A stretch of DNA of 64,000 bases from Deltaproteobacteria bacterium (GTDB taxonomy: Bacteria; Desulfobacterota; Desulfuromonadia; Desulfuromonadales; BM103): the NCBI GenBank assembly GCA_024279915.1, contig JAJRRB010000039.1, positions 652-64,651 on the forward strand, in the 5' to 3' direction. The notes under the pieces were generated by a model. It saw only the letters and a program-made list of their open reading frames with translations, did no database searches and was not told where the DNA came from. The position numbers and the translations under genes are program-made. This document shows positions 2,428 to 59,456 of the stretch, piece after piece. The stretch's first letter is position 1. Each line of letters opens with the position of its first letter.

Positions 2428-4641
2428 ATGAAACTGCAAAAGATTCTGGCTGTACTGATGATTTTCTCTCTGTCGCTTGGTTCGCTTGGAACCTTCGCGC
2501 CATCGGTGTCGGCCGCTGATGATCTGACGCCTGAACAGAACCTCACGCAATTGAAAGCTGCGGCCGATGCTGCGAAAGCCGCAAAGTTGGCGGCTCTCTC
2601 TGCGGCACAAGAAGCTGCCAGGATTAAAGCTATTGCTGAAGCTGCTCTCGTAACTCAGCAAGCTGTTCAAGTTGCCGCAGAAGCAGCCGCGCAAGTTGCC
2701 GCTGATGCTGCGCAAGCCGCTGCAGACAAGATTGCCCTGGCAACTACGGATGAAGCAAAGGTTGCAGCCATGAAAGAGGCCTTGAACGCGGAGTCGGCTG
2801 CCAAGGATGCCGCCGTTGAGGTTGCCCAGGCAAACCTGGCTGTCGAGTTGGCCAGCACCTCTGTTGCCGAGGCGACTGTTTCAGTTGTTGCGGCACAAAC
2901 CGAAGTCATGAAAGCCACCACGGTTGAAGCCACGGCGACGGCCAAGGAGACCGCAGCGGTTGCTGTGATCACTTCGAGCACCGCTGCAGGTGATGCCGCT
3001 GCTGCCAAGGCTGCTGCAGATGCGGCCGCTGCCGTCAAGGCTGAGGAAATCGCCAAGCTGGCCGCGATCGAAGCGGCCACAATTGCTGCCGATCTTGCCG
3101 TTGCTGAGAAACTCGCTGAGGCGACCCGGCTGGCTGAGATTGCCGCCGCCGCCGAAGCAACGGAAGCCGAAAAAGCTGCCGCTGATAAAGCCCTTGCCGA
3201 GCAATTTGTTGCTGAAGCTGTCGCTGCCAAAGCTGCTGCGGATGAAGCTGCGGCTGCCAAGGCGATAGAAGTGGCAACCATTGCCGCTGCTCAGGCCGCC
3301 GCCGATCAGGCCGCCGCCGCTCAGGCTGCTGCTGAGGCTGAAGTTGCTGCCCAGGCTGCTGCTCAGGCTGCTGCTGACCGGGAAATTGCCCAGATCGCCG
3401 CTGCGGAAATCGCTGCCGCCGAACAGGCCGCAGCTCAAGTTCGTGCCGAAGCTGCTGCCGCCCAGGCCGCTGCTGCTACTCTGGCTGCTGCCCAGGCCCA
3501 GGCCCAGGCCCAGGCCCAGGCTGCCGCCGCTGAGGCTGCCGCGCAAGCTGCTGCGCAAGCTGCCGCCGATGTAACCGCTGCTGAGTTAGCCACCGCCACT
3601 CAGGCTGCTGCTGAGAGGGCTGCAGCCGAAGCTGCTGTCGCCCAGGCCGCGGCCGTTGCCCAGGTCGTTGCTGATGCCGCCGCCGCCCAGGCCGCCGCTG
3701 ATGCCCAGGCCGCCGCTGATGCCGCTGCTGCTCAGGTCGCCGCTGATGCCGCTGCCGCTCAGGTTGCTGCTGAAGCTGCTGCCATCGCTGAAGCCGCCGC
3801 CGCCCAGGCTGCTGCTGCTGCCCTGGCTGCCGAGCAGGCTGCTGCTGCCGAAGCGGCCGCTGCCAAGGCTGTTCTGGTTGCTGAACTGGCTGCGGCCCAA
3901 GCCGCCGCCGCCGAAGCCGCTGCCGCTGCCGATGCTGCTGCTGCCGCTGCTGCTGCCGAGCAGAGTGCCGCTGAGATTGCCGCCGCCGCTGAAGCTGCTG
4001 CTGCTGCTGAAGCTGCTGCACAGCTTGTCGCTGCTGAAGCTGAAGCTCAGGCCGTTGCTGATGCTGCTGCCGCTCAAGCCCTTGCTGATGCCACTGCTTT
4101 AGCCGCTGCCGAACAGGCTGCTGCCGAAGCTGCCGCTGCCCAGGCCGCTGCCGATGCAGCTGCTGCTGAACTGGCTGCTGCCGAAGCTGCTGCTGCCGAG
4201 CAGGCTGCTGCCGATGCTGCTGCTGCCGAGCTGGCTGCGGCTGAAGCTGCTGCTGCTGCCGCTGCTGCCGAGTTGGCTGCTGCTGAAGCCGCTGCTGCCG
4301 CGATGGCTGCTTCCGAACTGGCTGCTGCCGAGCAGGCTGCTGCTGATGCTGCTGCTGCCGAGCTGGCTGCCGCTGAAGCCGCTGCTGCCGAGCTGGCTGC
4401 TGCTGAAACTGCTGCTGCCGAGTTGGCTGCTGCCGAAGCCGCTGCCGCCCAGGCTGAAGCCGACGCTGCTGCCCTGGTTGCTGCCGAAGCCGCTGCTGCC
4501 GAAGCTGATGCTGCTGCCGTGGCTGCTGCTGAAGCCGCTGCTGCTCAGGCTGCTGCAGATGCCGCCGCTGCCGCTGCTGCTCAGGCTGCTGCCGAAGCCG
4601 CTGCTGCTGAAGATGACGATCCCGCCAGCCCCAGCTCATAA
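2428..4641 (+). CDS. Secreted, extremely alanine-rich acidic low-complexity protein (737 aa), function unknown
   Basis: RBS GGAAGGGA lies upstream of the ATG. The signal peptide is MKLQKILAVLMIFSLSLGSLGTFAPSVSA/AD. The remainder is almost only A, E, Q, D, V, L (K and T only in the first third), with pentad-like units [E/D/Q]-x-A-A-A and 10/20-aa repeats (AAELAAAEAAAAEQAAADAA). It ends EDDDPASPSS and is followed by a 9-bp hairpin. All other frames are open only because of the GCN repetition. Confidence 0.8.
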   Translation: MKLQKILAVLMIFSLSLGSLGTFAPSVSAADDLTPEQNLTQLKAAADAAKAAKLAALSAAQEAARIKAIAEAALVTQQAVQVAAEAAAQVAADAAQAAADKIALATTDEAKVAAMKEALNAESAAKDAAVEVAQANLAVELASTSVAEATVSVVAAQTEVMKATTVEATATAKETAAVAVITSSTAAGDAAAAKAAADAAAAVKAEEIAKLAAIEAATIAADLAVAEKLAEATRLAEIAAAAEATEAEKAAADKALAEQFVAEAVAAKAAADEAAAAKAIEVATIAAAQAAADQAAAAQAAAEAEVAAQAAAQAAADREIAQIAAAEIAAAEQAAAQVRAEAAAAQAAAATLAAAQAQAQAQAQAAAAEAAAQAAAQAAADVTAAELATATQAAAERAAAEAAVAQAAAVAQVVADAAAAQAAADAQAAADAAAAQVAADAAAAQVAAEAAAIAEAAAAQAAAAALAAEQAAAAEAAAAKAVLVAELAAAQAAAAEAAAAADAAAAAAAAEQSAAEIAAAAEAAAAAEAAAQLVAAEAEAQAVADAAAAQALADATALAAAEQAAAEAAAAQAAADAAAAELAAAEAAAAEQAAADAAAAELAAAEAAAAAAAAELAAAEAAAAAMAASELAAAEQAAADAAAAELAAAEAAAAELAAAETAAAELAAAEAAAAQAEADAAALVAAEAAAAEADAAAVAAAEAAAAQAAADAAAAAAAQAAAEAAAAEDDDPASPSS
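3490..3519 (+). repeat. Perfect hexanucleotide microsatellite (GCCCAG)x5 inside the Ala-rich CDS, encoding (AQ)5
   Basis: Direct reading of gcccag repeated five times; the repeat is in-frame. Confidence 0.9.
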
Positions 4642-6921: not shown

Positions 6922-7024
6922 GCGACGAAACGGTCGCCATCTCAGCCATGATCGGTGGGCTGATAAAATCGAAAAAGAACTACATAAATAACAGTAGTAA
7001 GAAATAAGATCATGCTTTTCGCGC

Positions 7025-7048
7025 CCCTCGTCCCGCGTCCCGCGTTCC
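7025..7048. repeat. Heptamer array (CCCCTCG TCCCGCG TCCCGCG TTCCGTT), GGGACGY family in reverse orientation
   Basis: Direct reading; two perfect adjacent TCCCGCG units. Confidence 0.7.
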
Positions 7049-7103
7049 GTTGCATTTAAATATTTCCTCCTTTGCAACTAAACTGAAAACTGGATTGAAA
7101 CAT

Positions 7104-9200
7104 ATGAATCAAGAAGAATCCCAGCTACGAACCGAAGAAGTCCATTTACGCGATTACCTGCACGTGATCAACAAGCGTCGCAGTCTGGTGCTGGCTGTCT
7201 TTGCGGTAATCTTCGTGATGGTGGCTCTCTATACCTTTGCCAGTGTGCCGCTCTATCGTGGTACGACCAAGGTTTTGATTGAGAAGGCGTCTTCTTCGGC
7301 GCTGACAGGGAATTCGCCTTCGCGGATTTATGATCCGGAATTTTATGAGACCCAGTTCCAGTTGATCAAAAGCCGCGCGGTGGCCAAACGGGTGGTGGCA
7401 AGCCACGACCTGGTCGACAATTTCGCCAGTTATCGCGGCGGCAATGACGATGAGGGGCTGTTGTCGAATGTGGCCGGCTGGTTTTCGGCTGCGAAAGAGC
7501 TGATCAAAGGCCTGCTTGGCACGACACAACCGGTGGGTGAAGAGCTGGCGTCGGATCAACTGACAAAGACCGCGGACCTTCTCAACGCGGATATCGAGGT
7601 CAAACCGTTCAAGAACAGCCGCATCGTTACGATCAGCTACCTGGCGCCCACCCCCGAGTTCTCCGCCATGATCGCCAATGCCACCGCCAAGGCGTATATC
7701 CAGGAAACGATGGAGATGAAGCTCGACTCCACCCGGACCACCCTGGAGTGGATGACCAGAAAGGCAACCGAAGAGGGTGTGAAACTGCAAGCGACTGAAC
7801 AGGCGCTGCAGAACTACATGGTGGCCAACGACATCATCACCCTGCAAAACCGCATGTCGGTGACCCCGGAACAGCTTTCCCAGATCAGCACGCAGCTGGT
7901 GATCGCCGAGTCGAAGCGCAAACAGCTTGAGTCTCTCTACACCAAAGTGCGCAGCGTGGCGAATGACCACAAGAAGGCGGAGACGATCCCGGCGATTGTC
8001 GCCGATCCGGCGCTGCAAATGATCCGTGGCCAGATTCTTCAGGCGGAACAGGATCTGCGCGAGCTGTCCAGTACCTACCTGTCCAAACACCCGGGGATGA
8101 AGAAGGCCAAGGCCGATCTCGAAATCCTCTCTGAAAAACGCAATCAGGAGATCACGAGGATTATCGAATCGATTCACAATGAATACGAGTTTGCCATATC
8201 GGATGAAGAGAATCTGCATGCGCAGATGGAACGGACCAAGGCCCAGGCCCAGGGTTTGAGCGAACGTTTCATTCAGTATGGTGCCTTAAAGCGCGAGGTT
8301 GATACCAACCGCACCATGTATGACGCGCTGCTGATGAAGATCAAGGAGCAGAGCATTACCGAGGAGACGCACCCGGTTTCGCTGTGGATCGTCGAAGAAG
8401 CTATTGTTCCTGAAGCCCCGGTCAAGCCGAACAAGAAGAAGAACCTGCTGCTCGGACTGATTGTCGGTTTGATGGCGGGGATCGGCATGGCCTTTTTCGT
8501 CGAATACCTCGACAACACGATCAAGTACCCGGAAGAGACGGAGAAAGCTCTCGGCCTGCCAGTGTTAGGTCTGGTTTCGCTGTGGAAGGAAAAAGATACG
8601 TCGATTGAGCAGGCGGTTGAGAAGTCGCCGCGCAGTGCCGTTGCGGAAAGCTACAAAGCTCTGCGGACCTCGCTGATGCTCGCCTCGGCAGATGGTGCTC
8701 CCGGCAGAATCCTGGTGACCAGCGCCGCGGCCGCGGCAGGTAAGACGACAACCGCCTTAAACCTTGCTTTCGCCCTGGCCCAGGCGGGCAAAAGGGTGCT
8801 TCTGATCGATGCTGATATGCGCAAGCCGCGCATCCACAAAGCCTTGAAGATGACCAACACTAACGGCTTGTCCAACTACCTCTCCGGCGGCAAAAGCAGC
8901 ATCCTGAAAAAAAGTACGCACGAGAATCTCGATGTGATCACCTCGGGGCCGATTCCGCCGAACCCTTCGGAACTGCTCTCTTCTCGCCATATGCAGCAGC
9001 TGCTCGATAGCCTCAGCGCGAACTATGACGTGATCATCTGCGATTCGCCGCCCCTGCTTTCGGTGGCTGATGCGCGGATCATCACCCGGGTTTGCGACGG
9101 CACGATTCTGGTGGTGCGCGCCAAGCAGACGACTTTCGATCTGGCCCGCAAAGCGACCCGACAGCTCACCTCGATAATGCACCGATCCTCGGGATGGTGA
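7104..9200 (+). CDS. Wzc/GumC-like polysaccharide co-polymerase fused to BY-kinase (tyrosine autokinase); reading frame breaks near 9168-9172
   Basis: ATG at 7104. An N-terminal TM segment is followed by a long coiled-coil Wzz-type periplasmic region and a second TM segment. Next come Walker A (SAAAAAGKTTTALNLA), A' (VLLIDADMRKP) and B (DVIICDSPPLL). This frame ends abnormally (..RQLTSIMHRSSGW*). Confidence 0.85.
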   Translation: MNQEESQLRTEEVHLRDYLHVINKRRSLVLAVFAVIFVMVALYTFASVPLYRGTTKVLIEKASSSALTGNSPSRIYDPEFYETQFQLIKSRAVAKRVVASHDLVDNFASYRGGNDDEGLLSNVAGWFSAAKELIKGLLGTTQPVGEELASDQLTKTADLLNADIEVKPFKNSRIVTISYLAPTPEFSAMIANATAKAYIQETMEMKLDSTRTTLEWMTRKATEEGVKLQATEQALQNYMVANDIITLQNRMSVTPEQLSQISTQLVIAESKRKQLESLYTKVRSVANDHKKAETIPAIVADPALQMIRGQILQAEQDLRELSSTYLSKHPGMKKAKADLEILSEKRNQEITRIIESIHNEYEFAISDEENLHAQMERTKAQAQGLSERFIQYGALKREVDTNRTMYDALLMKIKEQSITEETHPVSLWIVEEAIVPEAPVKPNKKKNLLLGLIVGLMAGIGMAFFVEYLDNTIKYPEETEKALGLPVLGLVSLWKEKDTSIEQAVEKSPRSAVAESYKALRTSLMLASADGAPGRILVTSAAAAAGKTTTALNLAFALAQAGKRVLLIDADMRKPRIHKALKMTNTNGLSNYLSGGKSSILKKSTHENLDVITSGPIPPNPSELLSSRHMQQLLDSLSANYDVIICDSPPLLSVADARIITRVCDGTILVVRAKQTTFDLARKATRQLTSIMHRSSGW

Positions 9201-9295
9201 TCAACGCCCTGGATATGAAGAAGAGCGATCATTACTACCAGTATTATTACGGTTCGTACGGAACTTATGGGGAACAGCCTGAAGAAGAAAGCTGA
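9170..9295 (+). other. Out-of-frame C-terminal tail of the BY-kinase (LDNAPILGMVINALDMKK...YYQYYYGSYGTYGEQPEEES), containing the Tyr cluster
   Basis: The frame displaced by one base encodes the conserved xxGxVxN strand and a 7-Tyr C-terminal cluster, the expected autophosphorylation sites. Confidence 0.75.
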
Positions 9296-9474
9296 AAACT
9301 GAAAACTGGAAAAAACCAAAGACTAATTTATCGGCCGCAGATAAAATCTGATAAATTCGGATCATTGCAAAAGCAAAGGCTTTATAGCTTGTAGACATCA
9401 GATGTTATCCGATTGCATCTGCGGCTAAAATTGTTTTTGCTGCTGCCTTTAACTTACTGCTTACAGCTGGGTTT
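9292..9474. repeat. Composite intergenic repeat: CTGAAAA x2-3 heptamers, a TTATCNGCGGC-type inverted pair, then CTTAC(A/T)G heptamers
   Basis: CTGAAAA CTGAAAA CTGGAAA at 9292-9312 (contains the stop of the kinase tail). GGCCGCAGATAAAATCTGAT at 9333-52 is opposed by ATCAGATGTTATCC..TCTGCGGCT at 9397-9426. AACTTAC TGCTTAC AGCTGGG lies just before the phosphatase ATG. Confidence 0.65.
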
Positions 9475-10173
9475 ATGATCGATCTCCACTGCCATATCCT
9501 CTGGGACATCGATGACGGACCAAGTGATTTCGACGGTTCGATGGCGATGGCGCGTCTGGCTGCTGCGGATGGAACTCGCCAGCTGGTCGCGACACCCCAT
9601 GTGCAAGACATGCTGCACTCGCCTGAACTGATCGCTGAGAAGGTTGCACGGCTCAACCAGGCGTTGCGCGATGCCGAAATCGACCTGGAGATCCTTTCTG
9701 GTGGCGACAACCTCTACAACCTGGGTGTTGAGAATCTGGCCCGCTACTCGATTAACGGCACTCGCTACGTGCTGGTGGAATTCCCCCACACCCATCTGCC
9801 GGCCCAGGCTGGCGACACTCTCTTCGCTGCCTTAAATCACGGTCTGGTGCCGATTATCACCCATCCGGAACGCAACCCCTCTATCGTACAGAACCCGAAG
9901 CTGCTCTTCGAACTGGTTGAAAATGGCGCACTGGTGCAACTGACCGCCGATAGCCTGACCGGTGGTTTCGGTCCTGCCGCCAAGGCGTGTGCGCGTTACC
10001 TGTTAAAGAAAAAGATGGTCCATTTTCTCGCCTCGGACGGCCACTCCTCCAAACACCGCCCACCGACCATGTCCGCCGGATTTAAGGCTGCGTCGAAGAT
10101 TGTTGGTAAGGATGCTGCGCGTATGCTGGTGTTTGATAATCCGGCGAAAGTCGTACAGGGGATTGAGCTGTAA
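9475..10173 (+). CDS. PHP-family protein-tyrosine phosphatase (CpsB/CapC/YwqE type)
   Basis: MIDLHCHILWDIDDGP..., ATPH, VLVEFPH, ITHPERN, ASDGHS. This is the metal-binding His/Asp pattern of CpsB-type phosphatases, and the gene is adjacent to the BY-kinase. Confidence 0.9.
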   Translation: MIDLHCHILWDIDDGPSDFDGSMAMARLAAADGTRQLVATPHVQDMLHSPELIAEKVARLNQALRDAEIDLEILSGGDNLYNLGVENLARYSINGTRYVLVEFPHTHLPAQAGDTLFAALNHGLVPIITHPERNPSIVQNPKLLFELVENGALVQLTADSLTGGFGPAAKACARYLLKKKMVHFLASDGHSSKHRPPTMSAGFKAASKIVGKDAARMLVFDNPAKVVQGIEL

Positions 10174-12913: not shown

Positions 12914-13049
12914 AATGCCAGAAATAGAGTCAAAAACCATAAATAACCCGTGTCCAAAAGTGCGCAACATGCTATAAAAAAATTAATTATAAGGTGCTGG
13001 TTTGCTGTTTTTTCTTACAGCTTACTGTGATCTGCCAAGGAGAGATTTT

Positions 13050-14174
13050 ATGTCAAAAGTCGCATTAATTACCGGCATCACCGGTCAGGACGGCGCGTAT
13101 CTCGCCGAATTTTTGTTGCGGAAGGGTTACATTGTTCACGGCATCAAACGCCGGGCATCTCTGTTTAATACGGATCGCATTGATCACCTTTATCAGGATC
13201 CGCACATTGAGCATCGTAATTTCATTCTTCACTATGGTGATCTGACTGATGCAACTAACCTGATCAGAATTATTCAGGAAGTTCAGCCAGATGAGATCTA
13301 CAATCTGGCGGCAATGTCGCACGTGGCGGTCTCCTTCGATACGCCGGAGTACACCGCCAACACTGACGGGTTAGGCACGCTACGCATTCTTGAGGCGATT
13401 CGTATTCTCGGTCTGGAGAAGAAGACGCGTTTTTATCAGGCATCGCCCTCGGAACTTTACGGTAAGGTTCAGGAGACACCACAGACGGAAACGACGCCAT
13501 TTTACCCGCGTTCACCCTATGGCGTGGCCAAACTCTATGCTTACTGGATTGTTGTCAACTACCGGGAATCATACGGCTATTTCGCTTGTAATGGTATTCT
13601 CTTTAACCATGAGTCACCGATTCGTGGTGAAACTTTTGTCACACATAAGATTACCCGCGCTGTGGCGCGTATGGCGCTCGGATTGCAGGACTGCCTCCAT
13701 TTGGGGAACCTTGATGCTAAGCGCGACTGGGGGCATGCCAGGGATTACGTTGAAGCCCAGTGGTTGATGCTGCAGCAGGATGAGCCGGAGGATTTTGTGA
13801 TTGCCACTGGCAAGCAGTACTCGGTACGTCAGATGGTGGAAACGGCAGCGACGGAACTCGGCATCGGCCTGCGTTGGGAAGGCGAGGGTCAGGACCAAAC
13901 CGGTATAGTTGACGATTTGAGTCAATTCAAAATTGAGAATTCAAAATTGATGACTAATGACATAGTCGTTCGCATCGATCCCAGGTATTTCAGGCCTGCG
14001 GAGGTTGAAACTCTACTTGGTGACCCGACCAAGGCGAAAGAGAAACTTGGCTGGGAACCGAAGGTGACTTTTCAGGAACTGGTGGTCGAGATGGTCAGGG
14101 CTGATTTGGAGTCGGCCAGGAAAGACGAATTGATTAAGGAACATGGTTATCAGACGTTTGATTATCACGAATAA
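13050..14174 (+). CDS. gmd: GDP-mannose 4,6-dehydratase
   Basis: RBS AAGGAGAG plus ATG. Motifs: [72 protein letters not shown]. Confidence 0.95.
13926..13960 (+). repeat. Heptamer array TTCAAAA TTGAGAA TTCAAAA TTGATGA CTAATGA inside gmd
   Basis: Direct reading. This is the same unit family as the intergenic arrays at 16953-17068. It is translated as ..[14 protein letters not shown].. in the variable loop before DPRYFRP. Confidence 0.8.
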
Positions 14175-14186
14175 CCCCTGGTGCGG

Positions 14187-14302
14187 GGGACGTGGTACGA
14201 GGGACATGGAAATCAAAGGCTGATTAACAGGGATGAAGGGGATGCAGGGGATAAATCAAGGACTTTGTCCCTTAACTATCCCCTTAATCCCCTTCATCCC
14301 TG
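14187..14302. repeat. GGGACGT GGTACGA GGGACAT GGAAATC array followed by a ~75-nt near-perfect hairpin (14228-14302) built of GGGGAT units
   Basis: CAGGGATGAAGGGGAT (14228-43) is the exact complement of ATCCCCTTCATCCCTG (14287-302). The inner pair is AGGGGATA/TATCCCCT (14246-53 / 14278-85). Confidence 0.8.
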
Positions 14303-14348
14303 TGAAATAATGTTACTGTTCACTGCTGAAAGCACTAAGAGGGGAAGC

Positions 14349-15356
14349 GTGGAAAAACAGTCGAAAATATTCGTGGCCGGTTCTGATGGTCTGGTCGGAT
14401 CAGCGATTGTCCGACGTTTGCAGGCTGGTGGTTATACGAACCTGTTAACCCCGGAGATCGATGAGCTGGATTTGGCTGATCCGCAGACCGTTGCCGTGTT
14501 TTTTGCGGCTGAACAGCCGGAATACGTGATTCTGGCGGCTGCCAAGGTGGGTGGCATTCATGCCAACAATACTTACCCGGCTGACTTCATTTACCTCAAT
14601 CTGTCGATCCAGAATACGGTGATTCACCAGGCTTATCTGCACGGTGTTAAGCGCCTGCTCTTCCTCGGTGCTTCGTGCATCTACCCGAAGTGCGCATCGC
14701 AGCCGATGAATGAGGACCACCTGTTGACTGGTCTGCTCGAACCGACCAACGAGCCTTACTCTCTGGCCAAGATTGCCGGTCTGAAGATGTGTGAATCATA
14801 CAATCGTCAATACGGTACGCAGTTCGTAGCGGTGATGCCGACCAATCTTTATGGTCCAGGCGATAACTTCCACCCTGAGAACTCGCACGTTCTTCCCGCA
14901 CTCATCCGCCGCTTTCACGAAGCGAAATTAAGCTCAATTCAAAATTCAAAATTAAGAATTCAAAATTCCCCAGACGAAGTCGTGGTCTGGGGCACCGGGA
15001 CGCCGATGCGTGAGTTCCTTTATGTCGACGATATGGCGGATGGATGCGTGTTTGTGATGGAGCTGGATGATGCCATTTTTGCAAGGGAACTGCTGAACTA
15101 TCCCGAACCATGTTTTGTGAACCTCGGAACCGGCGTTGATGTGACGATCAGGGCGTTGGCGGAAACAATTAAAGAGGTTGTTGGTTACGAAGGTAAACTG
15201 ATTTTTGATGCCACGAAACCGGATGGCACCATGCGTAAACTACTTGATGTCTCGCGGGCGAAAGGTTTGGGCTGGGAGGCGAGGGGTTCGCTTAGGGATG
15301 GGATTGAAAAGACTTATCAGTGGTTTTTGGAGAATCAGGAGTCTTTTAGAAAATAA
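14349..15356 (+). CDS. fcl: GDP-L-fucose synthase (GDP-4-keto-6-deoxy-D-mannose 3,5-epimerase/4-reductase)
   Basis: GTG at 14349 after RBS AAGAGGGGA. Motifs: [76 protein letters not shown]. The ORF is open from 14181, but that part is just translated repeat DNA. Confidence 0.9.
14926..14967 (+). repeat. TTCAAAA-family heptamer array inside fcl (TTCAAAA TTCAAAA TTAAGAA TTCAAAA at 14938-14965, with degenerate flanks)
   Basis: Direct reading. It is translated as ..[15 protein letters not shown].. between the conserved HEA and PDEVVVWG blocks. Confidence 0.8.
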
Positions 15357-15357
15357 T

Positions 15358-15449
15358 GGGACGAGGAACGCGGTACGCGGTACGAGGAAGTCAAGATCGG
15401 TTTTGACTGGTTTCGCGTCCCTCGTCCCGCATCCCTCGTCCCGTTTTTT
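15358..15449 (+). terminator. Long hairpin from two inverted GGGACGA-family heptamer arrays followed by T6; probable terminator/attenuator after fcl
   Basis: GGGACGA GGAACGC GGTACGC GGTACGA (15358-85) opposes GCGTCCC TCGTCCC GCATCCC TCGTCCC (15415-42), followed by GTTTTTT. The outer 9 bp are perfect (GGGACGAGG/CCTCGTCCC). Confidence 0.55.
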
Positions 15450-15454
15450 AAGGA

Positions 15455-16942
15455 ATGAACATGACGAATAAAAACAAGATCGTACCAGTAATTCTAAGCG
15501 GTGGCGCAGGCACACGCCTCTGGCCGTTATCACGCGAACTATATCCAAAACAACTTTTACCGCTGGTCGGGGAACAGACCATGCTGCAGGAGACCGTGCT
15601 GCGCTTGGAAGGGCTCGCTGACCTTGGTGCGCCGGTTGTGGTTTGTAACGACGCCCATCGTTTTATGGTGGCCGAGCAGCTGCGCCAGGTGAAGCAGGCG
15701 GCAGAGACCGTGATCCTTGAGCCGGTCGGTAGAAACACGGCTCCGGCTGTGGCTGTGGCGGCTCTACAGGCCATGGACGATGGTGAAGATCCGCTGCTGC
15801 TGGTGTTGGCTGCCGATCATGTGATCCGCGATGCGGCCGCACTCTGCACCGCAGTGACCAATGGTGTTGATGTGGTGCAGGATGGTGCGCTGCTGACTTT
15901 TGGGATTGTGCCGACAGCACCTGAGACGGGGTACGCTTACATCCGGTCGGGGGAGAGGCTTCGGGACGCGGGACGTGGGACGCGGGACGTGGAAAACCCA
16001 GCCTCCAGCCTCCAGTTACCAGCCCCAGAACTATATGATGTCCAGGAGTTTGTTGAGAAACCGGATCTGGATACGGCTGAAAAGTACCTTGCTAGCGGCG
16101 ACTACTACTGGAACAGCGGCATGTTTTTCTTTAAGGCCTCGGTCTTTCTGTCAGAATTGGAGAAATCTGCGCCGAAGATGTTGGCGGCCTGCCGCAAAGC
16201 CTGGCAGGGACGGTCATCTGACCTTGATTTTACCCGCCTAGATGCGGAGGCTTTTGCTGCCTGCCCCTCTGATTCTATCGATTATGCGGTGATGGAGAAG
16301 ACTGAGCGAGCTGTGGTGATTCCCCTCGATGCTGGTTGGAGCGATGTCGGCTCCTGGGCGGCGCTCTGGGAGGTTGGTGATGCTGATGACCATGGTAATG
16401 TCACCAGCGGTGATGTGAGCGAAGTTGCCTGCAAAGATAGTTATTTCTACGCCGGTTCGCGACTGGTCGCCGGGATCGGTCTGGAAGATACGATCGTGGT
16501 TGAGACGGCCGACGCCGTGCTGGTTGCCGCCAAGGATCGTGTCCAGGAGGTCAAAGAGATTGTCGCACGACTCAAAAAGCAGAATCGTGAAGAGTATCTG
16601 CTGCACAAACGCGTCAATCGACCCTGGGGCGCCTACGAGGGGCTCGATGCCGGTGACGGGTTTCTTGTCAAACGGATCATGGTGACACCCGGGGCCAGCC
16701 TTTCCCTGCAGAGCCATCAGCATCGCGCCGAGCACTGGGTGGTTGTGCGTGGGGTTGCAGAAGTGACTCTGGAGAATGTTGTGCAGACTGTTGAAGCCAA
16801 CCAGTCGATCTATATCCCGATTGGCCATAAGCACCGTTTCGCCAACCCCGGTGAGCAGGTTCTTGAGATCATTGAGGTGCAGACGGGCGACCATCTCTCT
16901 GAGGATGATATTGAGCGGTTTGATGATGAGTATGGACGTTAA
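15455..16942 (+). CDS. manC: Bifunctional mannose-1-phosphate guanylyltransferase / mannose-6-phosphate isomerase (type II PMI-GMP)
   Basis: Motifs: VILSGGAGTRLWPLSR..PKQ, GYAYI, FVEKPDLDTAEKYLASGDYYWNSGMFFF, and a C-terminal cupin (RPWG.Y, HRAEHWVVV.G). The start may be the second ATG at 15461 (better RBS spacing). Confidence 0.93.
   Translation: MNMTNKNKIVPVILSGGAGTRLWPLSRELYPKQLLPLVGEQTMLQETVLRLEGLADLGAPVVVCNDAHRFMVAEQLRQVKQAAETVILEPVGRNTAPAVAVAALQAMDDGEDPLLLVLAADHVIRDAAALCTAVTNGVDVVQDGALLTFGIVPTAPETGYAYIRSGERLRDAGRGTRDVENPASSLQLPAPELYDVQEFVEKPDLDTAEKYLASGDYYWNSGMFFFKASVFLSELEKSAPKMLAACRKAWQGRSSDLDFTRLDAEAFAACPSDSIDYAVMEKTERAVVIPLDAGWSDVGSWAALWEVGDADDHGNVTSGDVSEVACKDSYFYAGSRLVAGIGLEDTIVVETADAVLVAAKDRVQEVKEIVARLKKQNREEYLLHKRVNRPWGAYEGLDAGDGFLVKRIMVTPGASLSLQSHQHRAEHWVVVRGVAEVTLENVVQTVEANQSIYIPIGHKHRFANPGEQVLEIIEVQTGDHLSEDDIERFDDEYGR
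15963..16025 (+). repeat. 63-nt block of nine heptamers inside manC (GGGACGC GGGACGT GGGACGC GGGACGT GGAAAAC CCAGCCT CCAGCCT CCAGTTA CCAGCCC)
   Basis: Direct reading. 9 x 7 = 63 nt, the length of 21 codons; it spans 22 codons (offset by one base from the codon frame), read as RDAGRGTRDVENPASSLQLPAP between GERL and ELYDVQEFVEKP. Confidence 0.85.
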
Positions 16943-16952
16943 ATCACTCAAA

Positions 16953-17068
16953 TTTTGAATTTTGAATTCTTAATTTTTAATTGTAAGGTCAACAGTTAGA
17001 CAAAAGACGAAAGGGTTACGTGAAATGGTTCAGATTTTAATTCAAAATTCAAAATTCAAAATTGAGAA
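16953..17068. repeat. Inverted heptamer arrays (TTTTGAA x2, TTCTTAA, TTTTTAA ... TTCAAAA x3, TTGAGAA) flanking ~60 nt between manC and the phosphomannomutase gene
   Basis: The left array (16953-80) is the reverse complement of the right array's unit family (17041-68). Confidence 0.8.
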
Positions 17069-17074
17069 TTCGAT

Positions 17075-18427
17075 ATGAACATATCGTGTTTCAAAGCTTA
17101 CGATATCCGCGGTCGCATCCCCGACCAGCTCAATGAAGATGTCGCCTACCGCATCGGGCGCGCGTTTGCGCAATATCTGCACCCAAAAAGTGTCGTGGTC
17201 GGTCAGGATGTACGGCCAACCAGCCCAGCCTTGACGGCTGCTCTGATTAAGGGTTTGACCGAGGGTGGTGCCGATGTGCTTGATATTGGCCTGTGTGGTA
17301 CTGAGGAAGTCTATTTTGCCACATCGTATGCCAAGGCTGATGGTGGCATCATGGTAACGGCGAGTCATAACCCGGCTGATTACAACGGTATGAAGTTGGT
17401 GCGTGAGGAGAGCAAGCCGATCAGTGGTGATAGTGGTCTTGATCAGATCCGTCTGCTTGCAGAGCAGGGTGATTTCACTGTGCACGATCAAGTCGGCCAG
17501 GTGTCGCCTTATGAACACCGGGTTGCTTATATTCGTCATTTACTCAGCTATATCGATGCTTCTGCATTACGTCCACTGAAGGTGGTGGTGAATGCCGGTA
17601 ACGGTTGTGCCGGGCCCTTGCTCGATCTGCTGGAGAAGCAGCTACCGCTGGAGATCATCAAGATTTGCCACGAACCAGATGGCTCTTTTCCCAATGGCAT
17701 CCCTAATCCACTGCTGCCGGAAAACCGCGGCATCACGCGTGATGCTGTTCTGGAACATGGTGCCGGACTCGGGATAGCGTGGGACGGTGACTTTGACCGT
17801 TGTTTTTTCTTCAACGAGCATGGTGAGTTTATCGAAGGTTACTACATTGTTGGCCTGCTCGCGGAGGCGTTTCTGGCCAATCAGCCGGATGCTAAAATCA
17901 TCCATGACCCGCGTTTGACCTGGAATACCATCGATATCGTAGAACAGGCGGGTGGTCAGACTGTAATGAGCAAAACCGGCCATGCGTTTATCAAGGAGCG
18001 TATGCGCGCCGAGGATGCCATTTATGGCGGCGAGATGAGCGCTCATCACTATTTTCGCGACTTTGCTTACTGTGATAGTGGTATGATCCCATGGCTGCTG
18101 GTGGTTGAGTTGATGTGCCGTCAGCGCAAGCTGCTTTCCGAACTGGTTGGTGAGCGGATGCTCAAATTCCCTGCCAGTGGTGAAATCAACCTGACTCTCA
18201 AAAATCCGACGGCTGCAATCGCTGCGGTTGAGGAGAAATATGCGGCTGGTGCCATCGCAGTTGATCATACTGACGGGCTTTCGGTAGAGTATGAGAATTG
18301 GCGCTTTAATCTGCGGATGTCTAATACTGAGCCGGTGGTTCGGTTGAACGTGGAGTCACGCGGGGATCAAACACTTATGCAGGAAAGAACAGAGGAAATC
18401 CTGAGTTTTCTTGAGAAAGTTAACTGA
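17075..18427 (+). CDS. Phosphomannomutase/phosphoglucomutase (alpha-D-phosphohexomutase)
   Basis: The active-site loop [13 protein letters not shown], the metal loop WDGDFDRC, and [10 protein letters not shown] all match the ManB/AlgC family. Confidence 0.92.
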
Positions 18428-18518
18428 ACGATTGATGAACTCGTAAAGTCAAAAGCGTGTAAATTAATGTTTTTATGATTATAGTCTTAACTATTACGAA
18501 CAGCACCCAAGGTAAATC

Positions 18519-19589
18519 ATGAATCAAAGTGTTGAGATAAAATCAGATTCCCACGTCCCACGTCCCGCGTCCCGCGTCCCAGGTTTTAAGGTTCTGGTAA
18601 CCGGTGCCGCAGGCTTCATAGGTTCCCACCTCAGCCACCGTTTATTGGCCAGGGGTGATACGGTCATCGGTCTGGATAATCTGAACGATTACTATGAAGT
18701 ATCACTTAAGGAAAATCGTCTTAAGCGGTTAACTGGTAAAGAAAACTTTACCTTTGTAAAGTGTTCACTTGAAGATCGTGACGGCATAGATAAACTTTTT
18801 TCTGAGCATAACTTCGATGCGGTGGTTAACCTCGCAGCTCAGGCTGGGGTGCGTTATTCGTTGACCAATCCCCGTGCTTATGTCGATGCCAACCTGGTTG
18901 GTTTCATGAATATCCTTGAGGGGTGTCGACATCATCAGGTCGGTCATCTGGTTTATGCATCGTCCTCGTCAGTCTATGGCGCCAATACCAGCATGCCATT
19001 CTCGGTGCACGATAATATCGATCATCCACTGTCGCTTTACGCTGCGAGCAAGAAGGCCAATGAGTTGATGGCGCACACCTATGCGCATCTTTATAATTTG
19101 CCCTGTACCGGTTTGCGTTTCTTTACCGTTTACGGCCCTTGGGGACGTCCGGATATGGCTCTCTTTCTTTTTACTAAAGCGATTCTCGCTGGTGAGCCGA
19201 TCGATGTTTTCAATCATGGCCGTATGCGACGGGATTTTACCTATATTGACGATATTGTCGAGGGCGTTGTACGGGTAACTGATCAACCAGCACAGCCGAA
19301 CGCCGAATGGTCTGGCGATAACCCCGATCCGGGGACCAGTATGGCCCCTTATCGGGTCTACAATATTGGTAATAACAATCCGGTTGAGTTGATGCACATG
19401 ATCGAGACGTTAGAAAAAGCTCTGGGTAAGGTTGCGGTGAAAAATTTCCTTCCTATCCAGCCGGGTGATGTGCCTGCCACCTGGGCTAATGTCGATGCAT
19501 TGAGCGATGATGTCGGATTTCGACCGGCGACCTCGATTGAAGAGGGTGTTGGTCGGTTTGTTGAGTGGTATACGGGGTATTATTCATGA
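18519..19589 (+). CDS. NAD-dependent nucleotide-sugar epimerase, UDP-glucuronate 4-epimerase-like
   Basis: Motifs: [58 protein letters not shown]. It carries an unusual ~22-aa N-terminal extension that includes a translated heptamer array. Confidence 0.85.
18550..18584 (+). repeat. Heptamer array CCCACGT CCCACGT CCCGCGT CCCGCGT CCCAGGT within the 5' end of the epimerase CDS
   Basis: Direct reading. It is the reverse-complement family of GGGACGY and is translated as ..[12 protein letters not shown].. Confidence 0.8.
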
Positions 19590-20899
19590 GTTCAATTGTC
19601 GCTATAGTCGGTCGTCCCAATGTTGGCAAATCGACGCTTTTTAACCGCATCATAGGCAGACGTGTGGCCAGTGTTGAGGATGTGCCGGGTGTGACGCGTG
19701 ATCGTAATTATGCGGAGGTGACTCGCTACGAGAAGCGCTTCACTCTGATCGATACCGGTGGTTTTGAACCGGTCAGTAATGAACGCCTGCTCGCCCAGAT
19801 GCGTGAACAGTCACAGCTTGCGATGGAAGAGGCTGACATCATCCTTTTTCTGATGGATGGCCGCGAGGGTTTGAATCCTGCTGATGAAGAGGTCGCACAC
19901 ATGCTGCGCCAGGTCGATAAACCGGTGCTGTTTGTGGTCAACCAGGTCGATGGCCCAACCCAGGAAGCGAACCTTGGAGAGTTTTATGCCCTCGGTGTCG
20001 GTGAAATCCACTCCATTGCAGCTGAGCATCGTCTCGGTACGCGTGACCTGGTCGATGAAATCCAGGCTTTGCTGCCTGAGCAGGTCGATGATGATGAAGA
20101 CGTTACCGAAACTCGTCTGGCAATTATCGGTCGGCCCAATGTCGGCAAATCGTCGTTGGTCAATCGCATGCTCGGTTTTGAGCGGGTGGTCGCCAACCCG
20201 ACTGCCGGTACGACTCGTGACAGTGTTGATACGCCTTTTAACTACAATCAACGTCGTTATGTACTGATAGATACCGCCGGAATCCGCCGCAAGGGCAGGG
20301 TGTCACAGAAACTGGAAAAATATTCAGTCATTCTTGCGGTAAAAGCGATGGATCGAGCACATATTACCTTGGTGGTCATCGATGCTGAAGAGGGCATGAC
20401 CGATCAGGACCTGACGATTGCTGGTTATGCTCACGAACGCGGACGGGCCGTCATCCTGGTGGTGAATAAGTGGGATCTGGTCAAGAAGAATAATGCCACC
20501 ATGGGTGACTATATCAAGGAGGTGCGTGGGGCCTTCCGCTTTCTTCCTGACAGCCCTATTCATTTTGTTTCTGCTCTCAGTGGCCAGCGCATCAGCAAAA
20601 TCATGGCGGATGTGGAGATGGTCAACGATGAGTTTAACCGTAAGGTACCGACGTCTCAACTCAATAAACTACTGAAAGATGCGGAATATAACCATCAGCC
20701 GCCTATGTATCGCGGTAAACGCGTCAAGTTTTTCTACATTACCCAGACCGCTGTCCGCCCACCAACCTTTGTCGTTTTTGTCAACAAGGCCGATGGAGTT
20801 CATTTCTCCTATGAGCGCTATCTTATGAACTGCCTGCGTCAGGCCTTTGGCTTTACCGCATGCCCGATTCGCTTGAAATTTTCTGATCGTGAACATTAG
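19586..20899 (+). CDS. der: Ribosome-associated GTPase Der (EngA), double G-domain
   Basis: Two P-loops (GRPNVGKST / GRPNVGKSS), two DTGG/DTAG motifs and NQVD/NKWD motifs, plus a KH-like C-terminus. The ATG overlaps the upstream stop (ATGA). Confidence 0.95.
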
Positions 20900-20900
20900 C

Positions 20901-21012
20901 GCTGGAGGCTGGGGGTTGGAGATTAGGGGTTAACCCCAAGGGCCAAGGCTCTAAGATCCAGCCGCCTTACATCTTTACCGCCCTAAAACTTACAGCTTTA
21001 TAGCCTTTACTT
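20901..21012. repeat. ~110-nt intergenic tract made of concatenated short heptamer arrays (GCTGGAG GCTGGGG GTTGGAG ATTAGGG GTTAACC CCAAGGG CCAAGGC ... ACAGCTT TATAGCC)
   Basis: Direct reading in a 7-nt register from the der stop codon onward. Confidence 0.65.
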
Positions 21013-22790: not shown

Positions 22791-22792
22791 TT

Positions 22793-22836
22793 GGGAGCAG
22801 GGAGCTGGGAGCTAATCAGCTAATCAGCTAGAAACT
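22793..22836. repeat. Array GGGAGCA GGGAGCT GGGAGCT AATCAGCT AATCAGCT AGAAACT upstream of cheY
   Basis: Direct reading of 7- and 8-nt units; it runs into the RBS AAGGAG. Confidence 0.7.
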
Positions 22837-43630: not shown

Positions 43631-43702
43631 TGAGTTGTCGAAGCAGTTGCTTAACCGTTGGCTGAGAAGGTTTGTACGCGAAGGGTGTTTCCGCAGGATG
43701 TT

Positions 43703-43746
43703 AAAATGGGGCAGTTTACTCTGAATCAGTAAACTGCCCCGTTTTT
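43703..43746. terminator. Bidirectional rho-independent terminator (GGGGCAGTTTACT-7 nt-AGTAAACTGCCCC flanked by A4/T5)
   Basis: A perfect 13-bp stem lies between the convergent ARH and SH3b genes. Confidence 0.85.
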
Positions 43747-43758
43747 AATGGTATCAGA

Positions 43759-44208
43759 TCACTCGCCCCAAACCAGGAAGTCAACGATCCAGCCTTTTTT
43801 TAGATCGGCAGTTTGTATGAGCAGCCATTTTTCCTGTTTTTCAATGAGTTTTGCGGTCATTCCCTTTGAAAGCTGAAAGGAGACAGGATGGCTAGTGCCG
43901 GGACCCTGGCGAACATTGGCGCTGTCGCCAGTGACCACCACACCTTGTGTGTTGCTCAACAGTGAACGATGTACCCATCCGCTACGGCCGCGATAATCCT
44001 TGACCTTGTAATAGTCAGCGCCTTTCTCAACAACTGTCAACGGAGAGTAGGGGAGGAGCTTGGCAACAACCTTGGAAGCCATCGCGTTTGGTGCAGAACG
44101 CATCTCTGTGCCTGATAAGCCAACAGACATATTCTCTGCATAACTGGTTGATAGGGTTGCAAAGCATGCCAGCATGATTAAGCATGCCAAGGCAGTATAT
44201 TTTTTCAT
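43759..44208 (-). CDS. Secreted tandem bacterial SH3 (SH3b) domain protein
   Basis: A signal peptide (MKKYTALACLIMLACFATLSTSYA) is followed by two repeats of the ..R..P......V.......L.V......(W/Y)..V.....GW(V/I).. pattern. Confidence 0.7.
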   Translation of the reverse strand: MKKYTALACLIMLACFATLSTSYAENMSVGLSGTEMRSAPNAMASKVVAKLLPYSPLTVVEKGADYYKVKDYRGRSGWVHRSLLSNTQGVVVTGDSANVRQGPGTSHPVSFQLSKGMTAKLIEKQEKWLLIQTADLKKGWIVDFLVWGE

Positions 44209-44356
44209 GGGGCTCTCCTCTGATTGATTGAATATGATTTAAAAATAATCATGCTAAGATAGTCTATCTTCTGATAATTTCAATTAAAAAATCAATATGA
44301 AACGAGCCTATTGAAAATCATCCATAGATAAAGAAGAAAATCACTATGTCCAATTT

Positions 44357-44701
44357 ATGATTTTTGTTTGTTTTGGTTTTCTTCTATACGTCAAAACATT
44401 TGGCCATGCTTGGACGTTTGATGATTATTTTGTCATTTTAAACAATCTGGATATACGTTCAATTAAGGACTTTATTAATATTGAGTATCCGGGGAGACCG
44501 TTACGTGAATTGAGTGCCATGCTCGATTACAAACTGTTCGGTTTTGATCCAAAATATTAGCATATCCAGAATTGTCTCATCCATTTGATAAATGCCTGGC
44601 TGATTTACCTTCTGTTGATGAATTTATCCAGATCAAAGCTTTTGTCCTGGCTGAGTTCCTTGTTCTTTGCGAGACAGAAAAGCTTTTGCCTACCTCTATA
44701 A
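44357..44701 (+). pseudogene. Truncated remnant of a TMTC/DUF1736-like (PMT_2-type) membrane protein with an in-frame TAG at 44558
   Basis: ..FGHAWTFDDYFVILNNLDIRS...LFGFDPKY*HIQNCLIHLINAWLIYLLL.. matches the N-terminal F.YDD..I..N ... G..P.gYH..N...H..N pattern of these large TPR-containing proteins. Only ~113 codons remain before a second stop at 44699. Confidence 0.5.
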
Positions 44702-44896
44702 GTTGTACGTAGAATTTATCTTGTTGATGAACAATTTTGTGTGCAATAGATAAGCAACTATTGTTTGGACTTGCCTAGTTTGTGAACATAGTGTGTTCCC
44801 CATGCATGATTTATTCTCAGAGTTAAATTTGCTTGTCGATGAAAAAGTCTGGCAAAGTCAGTCAGTTATCTCCTTTCGTCAGTTTGCCTCACGTTT

Positions 44897-44912
44897 AGGC
44901 AAGCAATTTGCT
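44897..44912 (+). promoter_or_regulatory. Candidate sigma54 (-24/-12) promoter upstream of glnB-glnA
   Basis: AGGCAAGCAATTTGCT compared with the consensus TGGCAC-N5-TTGCW: GG and GC sit at the canonical 12-nt offset. It lies ~130 nt upstream of the glnB ATG. Confidence 0.45.
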
Positions 44913-44966
44913 ATTGATCGGGGGGTGCCGGGTCTGATAGATGCCTAGACCTAGGCTCAAAGATGA

Positions 44967-45380
<414 letters not shown>

Positions 45381-45453
45381 AGTTTAGCAGGCCATTCCAT
45401 ATAACTTAAAATCAGTAGTTAAAGACATTATTCTAAAGGAGAAAGTGAAAACG

Positions 45454-51834: not shown

Positions 51835-52303
51835 GTTTGATGCCTCCCTGGCTCGTTGCGTAAAGCCAATAATTGTTCCTGATTTTTGTTTTAGTAAAAA
51901 AATTTAGCAATAATAAAAAGTCTAGATAATGCTCATAACAACACTTTGTCAAGGAAAAACGCCTTGACCAGCAAGAGTTGCTCATTTACAGATCGGCAAG
52001 ATTATACATATCTCAGATAGCAATGCTGATGCCAATCTGTAGACTTAGGTAAAAAAATCCAAGTAACACTAAAGTTATCGCTTTTATCGTGGGCGTCAAG
52101 TTGTGTCAGCGATCAAAGAGATGAGAAAAGGTGGTGCCTTTGTGGCTGAAATTGGCCGAGGAAGGCTATTATTCAGCATTTTTTGCCAGAAAGATTGACA
52201 GGTCAGTTTCCAGACTATAATTAAGAGGCGTCATTTTTTGACGTACAATAATTGAAACTCAATTATTTTTGCTATTATTCTTAAAATCAGGTTGTCTTTA
52301 AAG

Positions 52304-52816
52304 ATGAATAGTTTTTCTGATTCACCGTTAAGAATAGCAGTCCTCTCAGATACTCATCTTGCCGATTCAGTCGATGCACATGCTTTCTTGTTGAAACTGA
52401 TTGAAGATGTACTTGCTCCGGTTGATATGATTTTACATGCAGGTGACCTGGTTGCTCCTGACCTTTTGAGTGCATTTGATGGTTATCCACTCCACGCTGT
52501 CCGTGGCAATATGGACTTGGCAATATCGGGCGTGCCGACGAAAAAAATCATTAAAGTTGGCGATTATACGATAGGGATGATCCACGGCTGGGGGCCGCAC
52601 AAGGGGATAGAGGAAAGAGCTTACGCAGAGTTCTCATCGGTTTCGCTCGACTGCCTGGTCTATGGGCATAGCCACATTCCTGTATGCCATCGACGCGAGG
52701 GTGTTTTGTTCTTTAACCCTGGTAGTGCAACAGACAGGCGAAGTATGGCGTACCATAGCATCGGTCTGCTAGAGGTTGGTAACGACATTCAGGGAACGAT
52801 CATCCGGCTTGATTGA
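52304..52816 (+). CDS. YfcE/MJ0936-family metallophosphoesterase
   Basis: RIAVLSDTHL, HAGD, GNMD, and VYGHSHIP are the metallophosphoesterase motifs. The ORF is open from 52292 (TTG). Confidence 0.8.
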   Translation: MNSFSDSPLRIAVLSDTHLADSVDAHAFLLKLIEDVLAPVDMILHAGDLVAPDLLSAFDGYPLHAVRGNMDLAISGVPTKKIIKVGDYTIGMIHGWGPHKGIEERAYAEFSSVSLDCLVYGHSHIPVCHRREGVLFFNPGSATDRRSMAYHSIGLLEVGNDIQGTIIRLD

Positions 52817-52843
52817 TGGCGTCGTAAATAAGTTGGGAGGCAA

Positions 52844-53329: not shown

Positions 53330-53464
53330 TCAATGAGTCGTGGTTTTCATTGTATTCCTGTATAAAAACTAATAAAATCAGTTGGATGACATCGTGTTGT
53401 TACTCGTCTTGCGCTGATGGCATCCTCGCCTATGACCTTAATCTTCTAAGGAGTTCTGATCAAT

Positions 53465-54475: not shown

Positions 54476-54507
54476 AAAGTAAAAAGTTAAAGGTGAAAGG
54501 TTAATGA
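54473..54507. repeat. Heptamer array TGAAAAG TAAAAAG TTAAAGG TGAAAGG TTAATGA bridging the exbD stop and the pfkA start
   Basis: Direct reading. The first unit contains the TGA stop and the last contains the ATG. Confidence 0.7.
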
Positions 54508-58704: not shown

Positions 58705-58706
58705 AA

Positions 58707-59231: not shown

Positions 59232-59456
59232 GAAAACGCAGAATCTCCTTTGTTCAGTCTGGTTCTAACCATAATGCACTTGGTGGTGTGTTGGCAACAG
59301 TCAGAATTCTCTGTTTTTTCGCTAAAATATCTACGAACCGAGTCTTTGCTGTTTACAGTCAACTTGCCGTTTTGTTAACATAATATCTTATGAAAGTGTG
59401 GAATCTAAAATAGCAAAAGCCAACCAACTGGTTGTTTTTTAGGAATAGTGCGTTTG

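Follow-up and report, generated by a model that had tools for sequence, protein, structure and literature searches.

How does a tandem repeat with a seven-nucleotide unit, which is not a multiple of three, come to lie in frame within an intact gene for an enzyme? The question is raised by manC, encoding a bifunctional mannose-1-phosphate guanylyltransferase/mannose-6-phosphate isomerase, in a stretch of 64,000 nucleotides ("the window") from a Deltaproteobacteria bacterium (Desulfuromonadales, BM103; assembly GCA_024279915.1, contig JAJRRB010000039.1, positions 652 to 64,651 of the forward strand). The gene is interrupted, though not broken, by 63 nt of heptamers at 15963-16025. The answer that we favor, with a probability of roughly 0.7, is that these heptamers are a copy of dispersed repeat elements with heptanucleotide units, translated in a permissive loop of ManC and tolerated there by the structure. 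Counts of repeat families and statements about their dispersal refer to the window rather than to the whole genome.

The repeat and its reading frame

The 63 nt read GGGACGC GGGACGT GGGACGC GGGACGT GGAAAAC CCAGCCT CCAGCCT CCAGTTA CCAGCCC, which is to say (GGGACGY)x4 + GGAAAAC + (CCAGNNN)x4, in frame within the intact gene. Around the array the open reading frame (ORF) reads ...GERLRDAGRGTRDVENPASSLQLPAPELYDV..., which places the array between the second base of codon 170 and the first base of codon 191. Tandem Repeats Finder registers two tracts, each with 100% matches: one of period 14 with 2.1 copies (15963-15992) and one of period 7 with 2.6 copies (15998-16015). The G-rich module at 15963-15990, taken together with the unit that follows it, encodes (R)DAGRGTRDV, and the insert as a whole adds about 21 hydrophilic, disordered residues, RDAGRGTRDVENPASSLQLPAP, to the protein.

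A preliminary description of this DNA had seen nine heptamers, 63 nt in all, from two unit families joined in frame in manC, and sequence, repeat finder and ORF reading agree with it, with two reservations. The length is as claimed, but a count of exactly nine is reached only if GGAAAAC, CCAGTTA and CCAGCCC, which are degenerate, are included, and the edges of the array are uncertain to within about one unit. Two families, G-rich and C-rich, are indeed joined, but GGAAAAC is the tail of the G-rich module and not its fifth unit. It is also correct that a 14-nt unit is present twice, so that a slip of 7 or 14 nt would shift the frame of manC.

Could such an array be an accident of composition? 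In a scan of the window, (GGGACGN)x3 with at most 3 mismatches gave 15 overlapping matches at 6 loci (0.02 expected), and the C-rich pattern CCAGCCTCCAGCCTCCAG gave 3 matches (0.07 expected). Arrays of four units number 11 for period 7 and 0-2 for each other period from 4 to 12, and 50 shuffles yielded none (the count was made without an Ala-rich repeat gene that is described below). Pattern counts so far above expectation, and the enrichment of period 7, exclude chance as the source of the array at 15963-16025.

The host enzyme and the loop that holds the insert

The identity of the gene, as first described, is secure: ManC matches TIGR01479 with E 7e-205 and 681 bits (the cut-off is 373), residues 9-495 lying on profile positions 1-467 in one stretch. 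The full-length match, with nucleotidyltransferase and cupin domains (Pfam domains read in homologs), places it among the type II GDP-mannose pyrophosphorylase-phosphomannose isomerases (GMP-PMI). PDB entries 2x5s, 2qh5 and 2cu2 match the sequence, and Foldseek matches the ManC model to the GMP structures 2x65 and 2cu2. Profile scans give the operon order gmd-fcl-manC-manB-epimerase, downstream of wza-, wzz-, cpsB- and wzy-like genes.

Three observations locate the insert within the enzyme. 1) The alignments to GMP structures 2x5s, 2qh5 and 2cu2, which the preliminary description had proposed as the way to find out whether the insert occupies a surface loop, hold on both sides of the insert and break across it: the flanking query residues are 171/194, 166/190 and 169/195, respectively, and over the break (query 166-171 to 190-195) the structure chains advance by merely 0-5 residues. 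2) The spacer between the ETGYGYI and FxEKP motifs, which is 13-17 residues long in 59 of 72 outgroup loci (mode 14), measures 35 residues in the ManC of the window; subtracting 63 nt leaves 14 residues, so that deleting the repeats does restore the usual ManC spacing, as the preliminary description had anticipated. 3) In the AlphaFold2 model the predicted local distance difference test score (pLDDT) falls below 50 at residues 172-189, between confident strands at 162-168 and 194-200. Taken together, the alignment breaks, the outgroup spacers and the low-confidence loop identify the insert as extra sequence relative to the wider family, at what the model predicts to be a disordered β-hairpin tip of the nucleotidyltransferase domain. 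Most likely the enzyme works normally with its insert, and the insert is neutral.

The same site in relatives

The nearest ManC homologs, at most 88% identical and 401-502 residues long (468-502 if full-length), are metagenome proteins assigned to Desulfuromonadales or "Deltaproteobacteria", and the loop is hypervariable in every one of them. At the DNA level the loop was compared in eight relatives (L081, L082, L083, L084, L085, L086, L207 and L208), with manC identities to the window of 76-86%; heptamer-periodic sequence is present at the same site. The composite of G-rich array, A-rich spacer and C-rich array is shared by most of them and is partly recognizable in L083, L081 and L085. The L083 loop has a G array only, GGGATGC GGGACGC GGCACGC GGGATGA; in L086 a single GGGACGC unit and TAAAAC precede a long C-rich array; in L208, GGAGCGC GGCGCGC GGGGCGT is followed by GACGAGAAA and four CCAGCCC-type units; in L207, GGCGCGC GGCGTGT GGCGTGT is followed by GGCGGGAAT and CCAATCC-type units. 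CCAGCCY arrays are present in L082 and in L084, the latter with TGTCAGT x3 in addition, and neither has a G array of the GGGACGN type; L085 has GAGGAGT-type and ACCCCTC x4 arrays. CCAGCCY-related arrays thus recur at the manC site in L082, L084, L086 and L208, and the other units at the site change from relative to relative (GGGAYGC in L083, GGCGYGY in L207, GGNGCGY in L208, TGTCAGT in L084, GAGGAGT/ACCCCTC in L085). The units of one array resemble each other more closely than they do those of its orthologs, which indicates concerted evolution. In a neighbor-joining tree made without the loop, loop composition does not cleanly track phylogeny, and the array edges of the window and L084 differ by whole units.

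Judged from these alignments, the composite is old and common to a Desulfuromonadales-like clade: it predates the split of lineages whose manC DNA is now 76-86% identical, and is neither private nor recent. The preliminary description had allowed that relatives might carry the segment as homologous, non-inserted sequence. Within the clade that is partly so, the relatives having positional homologs of it; measured against the outgroups the segment is extra sequence.

What, then, of the length of the insert? An insert in an intact gene is necessarily a multiple of 3 nt, and the preliminary description had gone further, seeing in 9x7 = 21x3 what one would expect if only frame-preserving array sizes survive in essential coding sequences, with a bias towards multiples of 21 nt. 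As a general rule the multiple of 21 fails, and the data show no added demand for heptamers in complete threes: the G module alone is 28 nt, and the other coding arrays of the window change the length of their genes by -3, +27 and +30 nt. The loops of the relatives measure 66, 81, 84, 87, 87, 99, 105 and 105 nt and differ from that of the window by 0, 6, 18, 21, 24 or 39; among 119 homologs loop lengths peak at 22, 27 and 35 residues, and a quantization in steps of 7 residues is not seen. A faint trace of the idea may persist: L086, with one G unit to the four of the window, differs by about 21 nt, and a loop of 105 nt is common to the three most regular composites (window, L084 and L085). Since n is 3 and the edges of the arrays are fuzzy, these observations hint, weakly and not decisively, at frame-preserving steps of three units.

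A dispersed family of modules

The G module of manC is one of six copies in the window (7022-, 14180+, 15358+, 15442-, 15963+ and 18580-, the sign giving the strand), two of them coding (in manC and in the epimerase gene) and four intergenic. Upon alignment each consists of four units and a tail resembling G(G/C)GAAA(A/T)C, and a G module with a GGAAAWC tail also occurs in intergenic copies of L082, L084 and L207. The C-rich CCAGCCY family has a second copy at 20902-20919(-). AATTCAA, a third family, is present four times, with about 4-4.7 units to the copy. The features are collected in Table 1.

Table 1. Repeat features of the window and the gene that is at issue
Feature	Position	Strand	Remarks
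manC, bifunctional mannose-1-phosphate guanylyltransferase/mannose-6-phosphate isomerase	15455..16942	+	495 aa, intact; TIGR01479
G-rich module in manC	15963..15990	+	four heptamers = 14-mer x2; one of six aligned family copies
GGAAAAC	15991..15997	+	conserved A-rich tail of the G module; no independent unit
C-rich array CCAGCCT CCAGCCT CCAGTTA CCAGCCC	15998..16025	+	encodes PASSLQLPA(P)
Predicted tryptic peptide across the ManC insert			DVENPASSLQLPAPELYDVQEFVEKPDLDTAEK
Inverted G-module pair, long hairpin then U run	15358..15443	+	intergenic, just upstream of the manC start codon
G module in gmd-fcl intergenic region	14180..14213	+	pattern scan and family alignment
G module upstream of the wzz-like ORF at 7050	7022..7049	-	pattern scan and family alignment
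G module in N-terminal tail of epimerase ORF 18519-19589	18547..18580	-	in frame; +27 nt relative to L083
AATTCAA-family array in gmd	13924..13950	+	in frame; encodes QFKIENSKL; -3 nt net relative to relatives
AATTCAA-family array in fcl	14936..14968	+	in frame; +30 nt relative to L081
Inverted AATTCAA pair, manC-manB intergenic	16951..17071	16951-16982 (-), 17039-17071 (+)	fold z -2.32

There are, in all, five in-frame arrays in four genes (gmd, fcl, manC with two, and the epimerase gene), each in a stop-free orientation. The antisense of AATTCAA contains TGA, and the sole antisense copy is intergenic; GGGACGN is stop-free in all six frames and can therefore sit in any gene in either orientation. 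The Pfam Epimerase domain begins at residue 25 of its ORF, and Fcl matches NF047922 from residue 3 to residue 331 (profile positions 2-307).

The gmd array calls for separate mention. At 13869-13997 it takes the place of some 17 loop codons whose product, SVATDRGVLAGALQPGQV, the relatives conserve; this is replacement and not insertion.

Similar arrays are found farther afield. Arrays of (GGGACGN) with at least 4 units are widespread in metagenome contigs, in at least 120 stretches; among the matches listed, 87 arrays were analyzed, 44 of them with exactly four units and 24 with five. Arrays lie in frame within real genes in L116 (UPF0182) and in L137 (the AAA_assoc_2 domain of MgsA, where 4 units entail no net change of length against the Pfam profile); these are the two of ten array-spanning ORFs tested in which the array falls inside a matched Pfam domain, that of L097 being interdomain. 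The peptide of L115 is nearly identical to an array peptide of this set, and the placement of its domain comes from that likeness rather than from Pfam. Many of the long array-spanning ORFs in high-GC metagenome contigs are probably spurious.

How might the arrays have come to be where they are?

For how such arrays arise, spread and become homogenized, we infer the following course. Two adjacent elements, the G-rich module (four heptamers and its GGAAAAC tail) and the C-rich CCAGCCY array, would have come to occupy the hairpin-tip codons of manC. Both belong to repeat families scattered through the region, most copies being intergenic, where inverted pairs form long, terminator-like hairpins. 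Arrays within genes would persist only when their orientation is stop-free, their net change of length is a multiple of three, and they fall in a permissive surface loop or a protein tail. Within each lineage the units would then have drifted together, probably by frame-keeping slippage or gene conversion.

Several observations weigh against this account. The peptide RDAGRGTRD is identical in the window and L083, and 4 of the 5 substitutions between the two arrays are at third codon positions (p ~0.045 by our estimate), a weak hint, from sequence comparison, that the peptide is under selection and not purely neutral. The G array of the window is perfectly regular amid the decayed arrays of its relatives, so that something would seem to keep it fresh. 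All five coding arrays fall within one 5-kb operon, a clustering that is unexplained. Finally, the ORF scans of the window identified no mechanism of spreading for the heptamer arrays: transposase, REP-associated tyrosine transposase (RAYT; REP, repetitive extragenic palindrome) and reverse transcriptase were not found, by NCBIfam or Pfam, among 34 ORFs. (A technical note: these are 32 of the 43 ORFs of at least 200 residues, plus gmd and fcl, which were entered at trimmed starts. Outside the scan lay nine ORFs on the minus strand, each overlapping an annotated gene on the plus strand, the 3' ORFs 59448-62063 and 62060-63823, and 15 kb of the 3' part: 43631-45444, 51835-54503 and 58705-64000.)

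Would an active process working in a 7-nt register (polymerase or repair slippage, or templated patching), which produces and refreshes period-7 arrays also within genes, serve better? Loop codons would then be overwritten or extended, as in the replacement at nearly constant length in gmd, and orthologous arrays would be kept while their units turn over in concert. We regard this as an unlikely alternative. Were it true, the process would generate diversity of loops in housekeeping enzymes, only outcomes with a net change of 3n surviving, and the conserved RDAGRGTRD would be a product of the repeats on which selection has since acted.

Do the arrays act as RNA or DNA?

A translated repeat is also transcribed, and the arrays in gmd, fcl, manC and the epimerase gene, with those in all the spacers between these genes, might instead co-regulate the GDP-mannose/fucose operon through an RNA G-quadruplex or through factor-binding heptamers (by pausing, attenuation or mRNA stability). 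The setting lends itself to the proposal: the arrays are concentrated in one operon, and the intergenic pair upstream of manC forms a strong hairpin with a U run behind it. The number of units is nearly fixed at four in the window, and four is commonest in metagenomes, as it is for the G-quadruplex-forming GGGNATC repeats (PMC4692102). The manC copy itself reads G3N4G3N4G3N4G3 on the sense strand, with at least four G3 tracts and loops that do not exceed 7 nt (they are of 4 nt), and the G-quadruplex option of ViennaRNA favors a quadruplex for the isolated 41-nt segment only (-11.2 as against -9.3 kcal/mol).

What speaks against regulation begins with that same calculation: in a 91-nt context the quadruplex is not favored and is not the structure of minimum free energy. 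Three of the six family copies (those at 15358, 14180 and 7022) lack four G tracts; the AATTCAA and CCAGCCT arrays share the four-unit habit, yet cannot form G-quadruplexes; the epimerase and MgsA copies place the C-rich strand in mRNA; and L083 has lost one G tract while keeping the peptide. A quadruplex as the unifying property is rejected, being impossible for half of the six copies and for the families that are not G-rich. The manC composite folds no better than its shuffles (z +1.26; 183 of 200 shuffles as good) and thus lacks the hairpin that characterizes REPs, REP doublets forming hairpins (REPINs) and miniature inverted-repeat transposable elements (MITEs), and Rfam yields no family match to the arrays; intergenic hairpins gave chance microRNA-precursor matches only. 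A regulatory role for the manC array is, in sum, improbable. A single hairpin element extending across the G and C arrays was also considered and is ruled out: the fold is at shuffle level, the G and C units are merely 5/7 complementary, and some relatives have one array alone.

Between genes matters are otherwise, heptamer copies there tending to form inverted pairs. The pair just upstream of manC reaches -47.9 kcal/mol, with a z of -5.46 and none of 200 shuffles as stable, and its U run lies just before the ribosome-binding site of manC. (A simple terminator scan missed this hairpin on account of its limits on stem and loop; the fold calculation was used instead.)

The fcl-manC hairpin is conserved (window 15358-15443; L084 3269-3354; L082 9909-10000; L085 9969-10000). 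Its arms, read by eye, have 4/4 units in the window, 3/3 in L084, about 2 in L082 and 1/1 in L085; since the numbers seem matched, the stem appears to lengthen or shorten symmetrically in 7-nt steps. A second intergenic structure is a hairpin element of about 100-150 nt made of 9-mers (GGGATGAAG ... CTTCATCCC), with a G module and GGAAATC ahead of it (window 14207-14321; L084 4843-5025; L207 1786-1988; L082 11462-11684; L085 8734-8940). It lies in the gmd-fcl spacer here and downstream of manC in L082, L084 and L207, and consequently looks mobile or rearranged; it also yields a spurious Rfam match to MIR408.

Slippage in place, and switching

Less probable again is an origin in situ, in which native loop codons grew by polymerase slippage in a 7-nt register and the likeness to the other copies is convergent, or spread outward from manC. 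Among long simple repeats heptamers are the most frequent class in many bacteria, and polymerase slippage has been given as their cause (Mrazek 2007, as presented in PMC4679880); different units occupy the same site across the relatives, and window and L084 differ at the edges by whole units, all of which slippage in place would accommodate. It accommodates less well the sharing of four units and a GGAAAWC tail by manC with the five other copies in the window and with the intergenic copies of L082, L084 and L207, which argues for a defined, dispersed element.

The weakest proposal, a phase-variation switch in which 7- or 14-nt slippage reversibly frameshifts manC and turns the supply of GDP-mannose for surface polysaccharide off and on, has going for it a non-triplet unit, a 30-nt perfect repeat of period 14 and a surface-polysaccharide cluster (wza, wzz, wzy, gmd, fcl) that is a typical setting for contingency loci, but is very improbable: there are merely four units, or two 14-mers, far fewer than in known switches, all 119 homologs with a located loop are in frame and intact (in a database of called proteins that is biased against frameshifted copies), and similar arrays lie in cytosolic housekeeping genes elsewhere.

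A tolerated copy of a dispersed element, then, is what we take the manC insert to be. The locus shows non-triplet repeats living in intact enzyme genes, at loop tips or in tails, stop-free and with a net change of 3n, and shows too that inserts of this kind can last, and undergo concerted evolution, across species. This bears on how repeat elements create variation in protein length. It bears also on annotation: an odd loop of low complexity in a conserved enzyme is not necessarily an error.

Other observations in the window

All five coding heptamer arrays and most of the intergenic ones are gathered within the 6-kb gmd-fcl-manC-manB-epimerase operon or beside it (13000-19600); the remaining ~40 kb, mostly housekeeping genes, is almost free of them. 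The wzz-cpsB intergenic site has GAAAACT x3 in the window (9287-9312) and GGGACTG x4 in L081 (3368-3396), the same site with another unit; in shifted phase these arrays read ACTGAAA and ACTGGGG, respectively. TGGGAGC x3 and then AGCTAATC x2.6 follow a response-regulator ORF (22792-22830), and an A-rich array of period 7/14 ends at the pfk start codon (54467-54504). Inside the polysaccharide export cluster an ORF of 737 residues (2428-4641), with no Pfam match, consists almost entirely of Ala-rich GCN-type tandem repeats with periods of 6-45.

On a larger scale, nearly all long ORFs are on the plus strand, GC skew is positive throughout, and its cumulative rise is monotonic but for two small dips at 8-12 kb, which is consistent with a leading-strand region. 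The 3' mutS and AMIN-amidase genes are syntenic with those of L081, with ~35 kb of extra genes between them and manC in the window. In L085 the gene calls break up fcl and der (8941-9968 and 14320-15599) into two or three genes apiece; frameshifting driven by the repeats was considered and set aside in favor of assembly or frameshift errors, the break in fcl lying away from the heptamer site.

Relation to known repeat systems

Phase-variable loci, such as those with tetra- and heptanucleotide tracts in Haemophilus and Neisseria, are long and length-polymorphic. The manC array resembles contingency loci in having a non-triplet unit in or near a surface-polysaccharide gene, but is a short, interrupted tract, and in all the relatives examined it is in frame.

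Heptamer repeats of bacteria have been reviewed by MacGregor (2015; PMC4679880), who notes that stop-codon content limits their overlap with genes. The cyanobacterial short tandemly repeated repetitive (STRR) sequences and the TAACTGA repeats of Beggiatoaceae treated there are, like those of the window, tandem heptamers of about 2-6 units, with several families to a genome and with stop content dictating the coding orientation. TAACTGA of marine Beggiatoaceae has forward stops and is almost entirely intergenic, unlike GGGACGN in the window. The GGGNATC/GGGGAYT heptamers of Xanthomonas and Nostoc, with their preference for four units and their formation of G-quadruplexes (Rehm et al. 2015; PMC4692102), come closer: they too are G3N4 heptamers in fours, mostly intergenic or near gene ends and in inverted pairs. 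The difference is that half of the G-module copies of the window lack four G tracts, and that the AATTCAA and CCAGCCT families behave alike.

Closest of all are the 49 four-heptamer GGGACCG elements (Gmet_H401-H449) of Geobacter metallireducens (Aklujkar et al. 2009; PMC2700814), many of which are annotated "within" genes (cobS, cbiD, cobQ, lpdA, sucB and others) and which their authors called predicted regulatory RNAs, without evidence. The G modules share several features of this Gmet_H4 class: four tandem GGGACNN heptamers in multiple copies on both strands (here within 64 kb), between and inside housekeeping genes, sometimes several to a gene, in a Desulfuromonadia host. Gmet_H401 ends in ...GGGACCGGGAAAACCC, and its A-rich tail (GGGAAAACCC) resembles GGAAAAC of the window; those of H402 and H403 do not, in a comparison that falls short of all 49. 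The unit of the window is GGGACGY and not GGGACCG (positions 6-7 differ), and the manC copy is fused to a C-rich array; the Gmet_H4 paper does not analyze the frame, loop location or evolution of its elements. The insert in manC is accordingly no new system: it is of a kind already described, four-heptamer elements inside genes having been cataloged for G. metallireducens in 2009.

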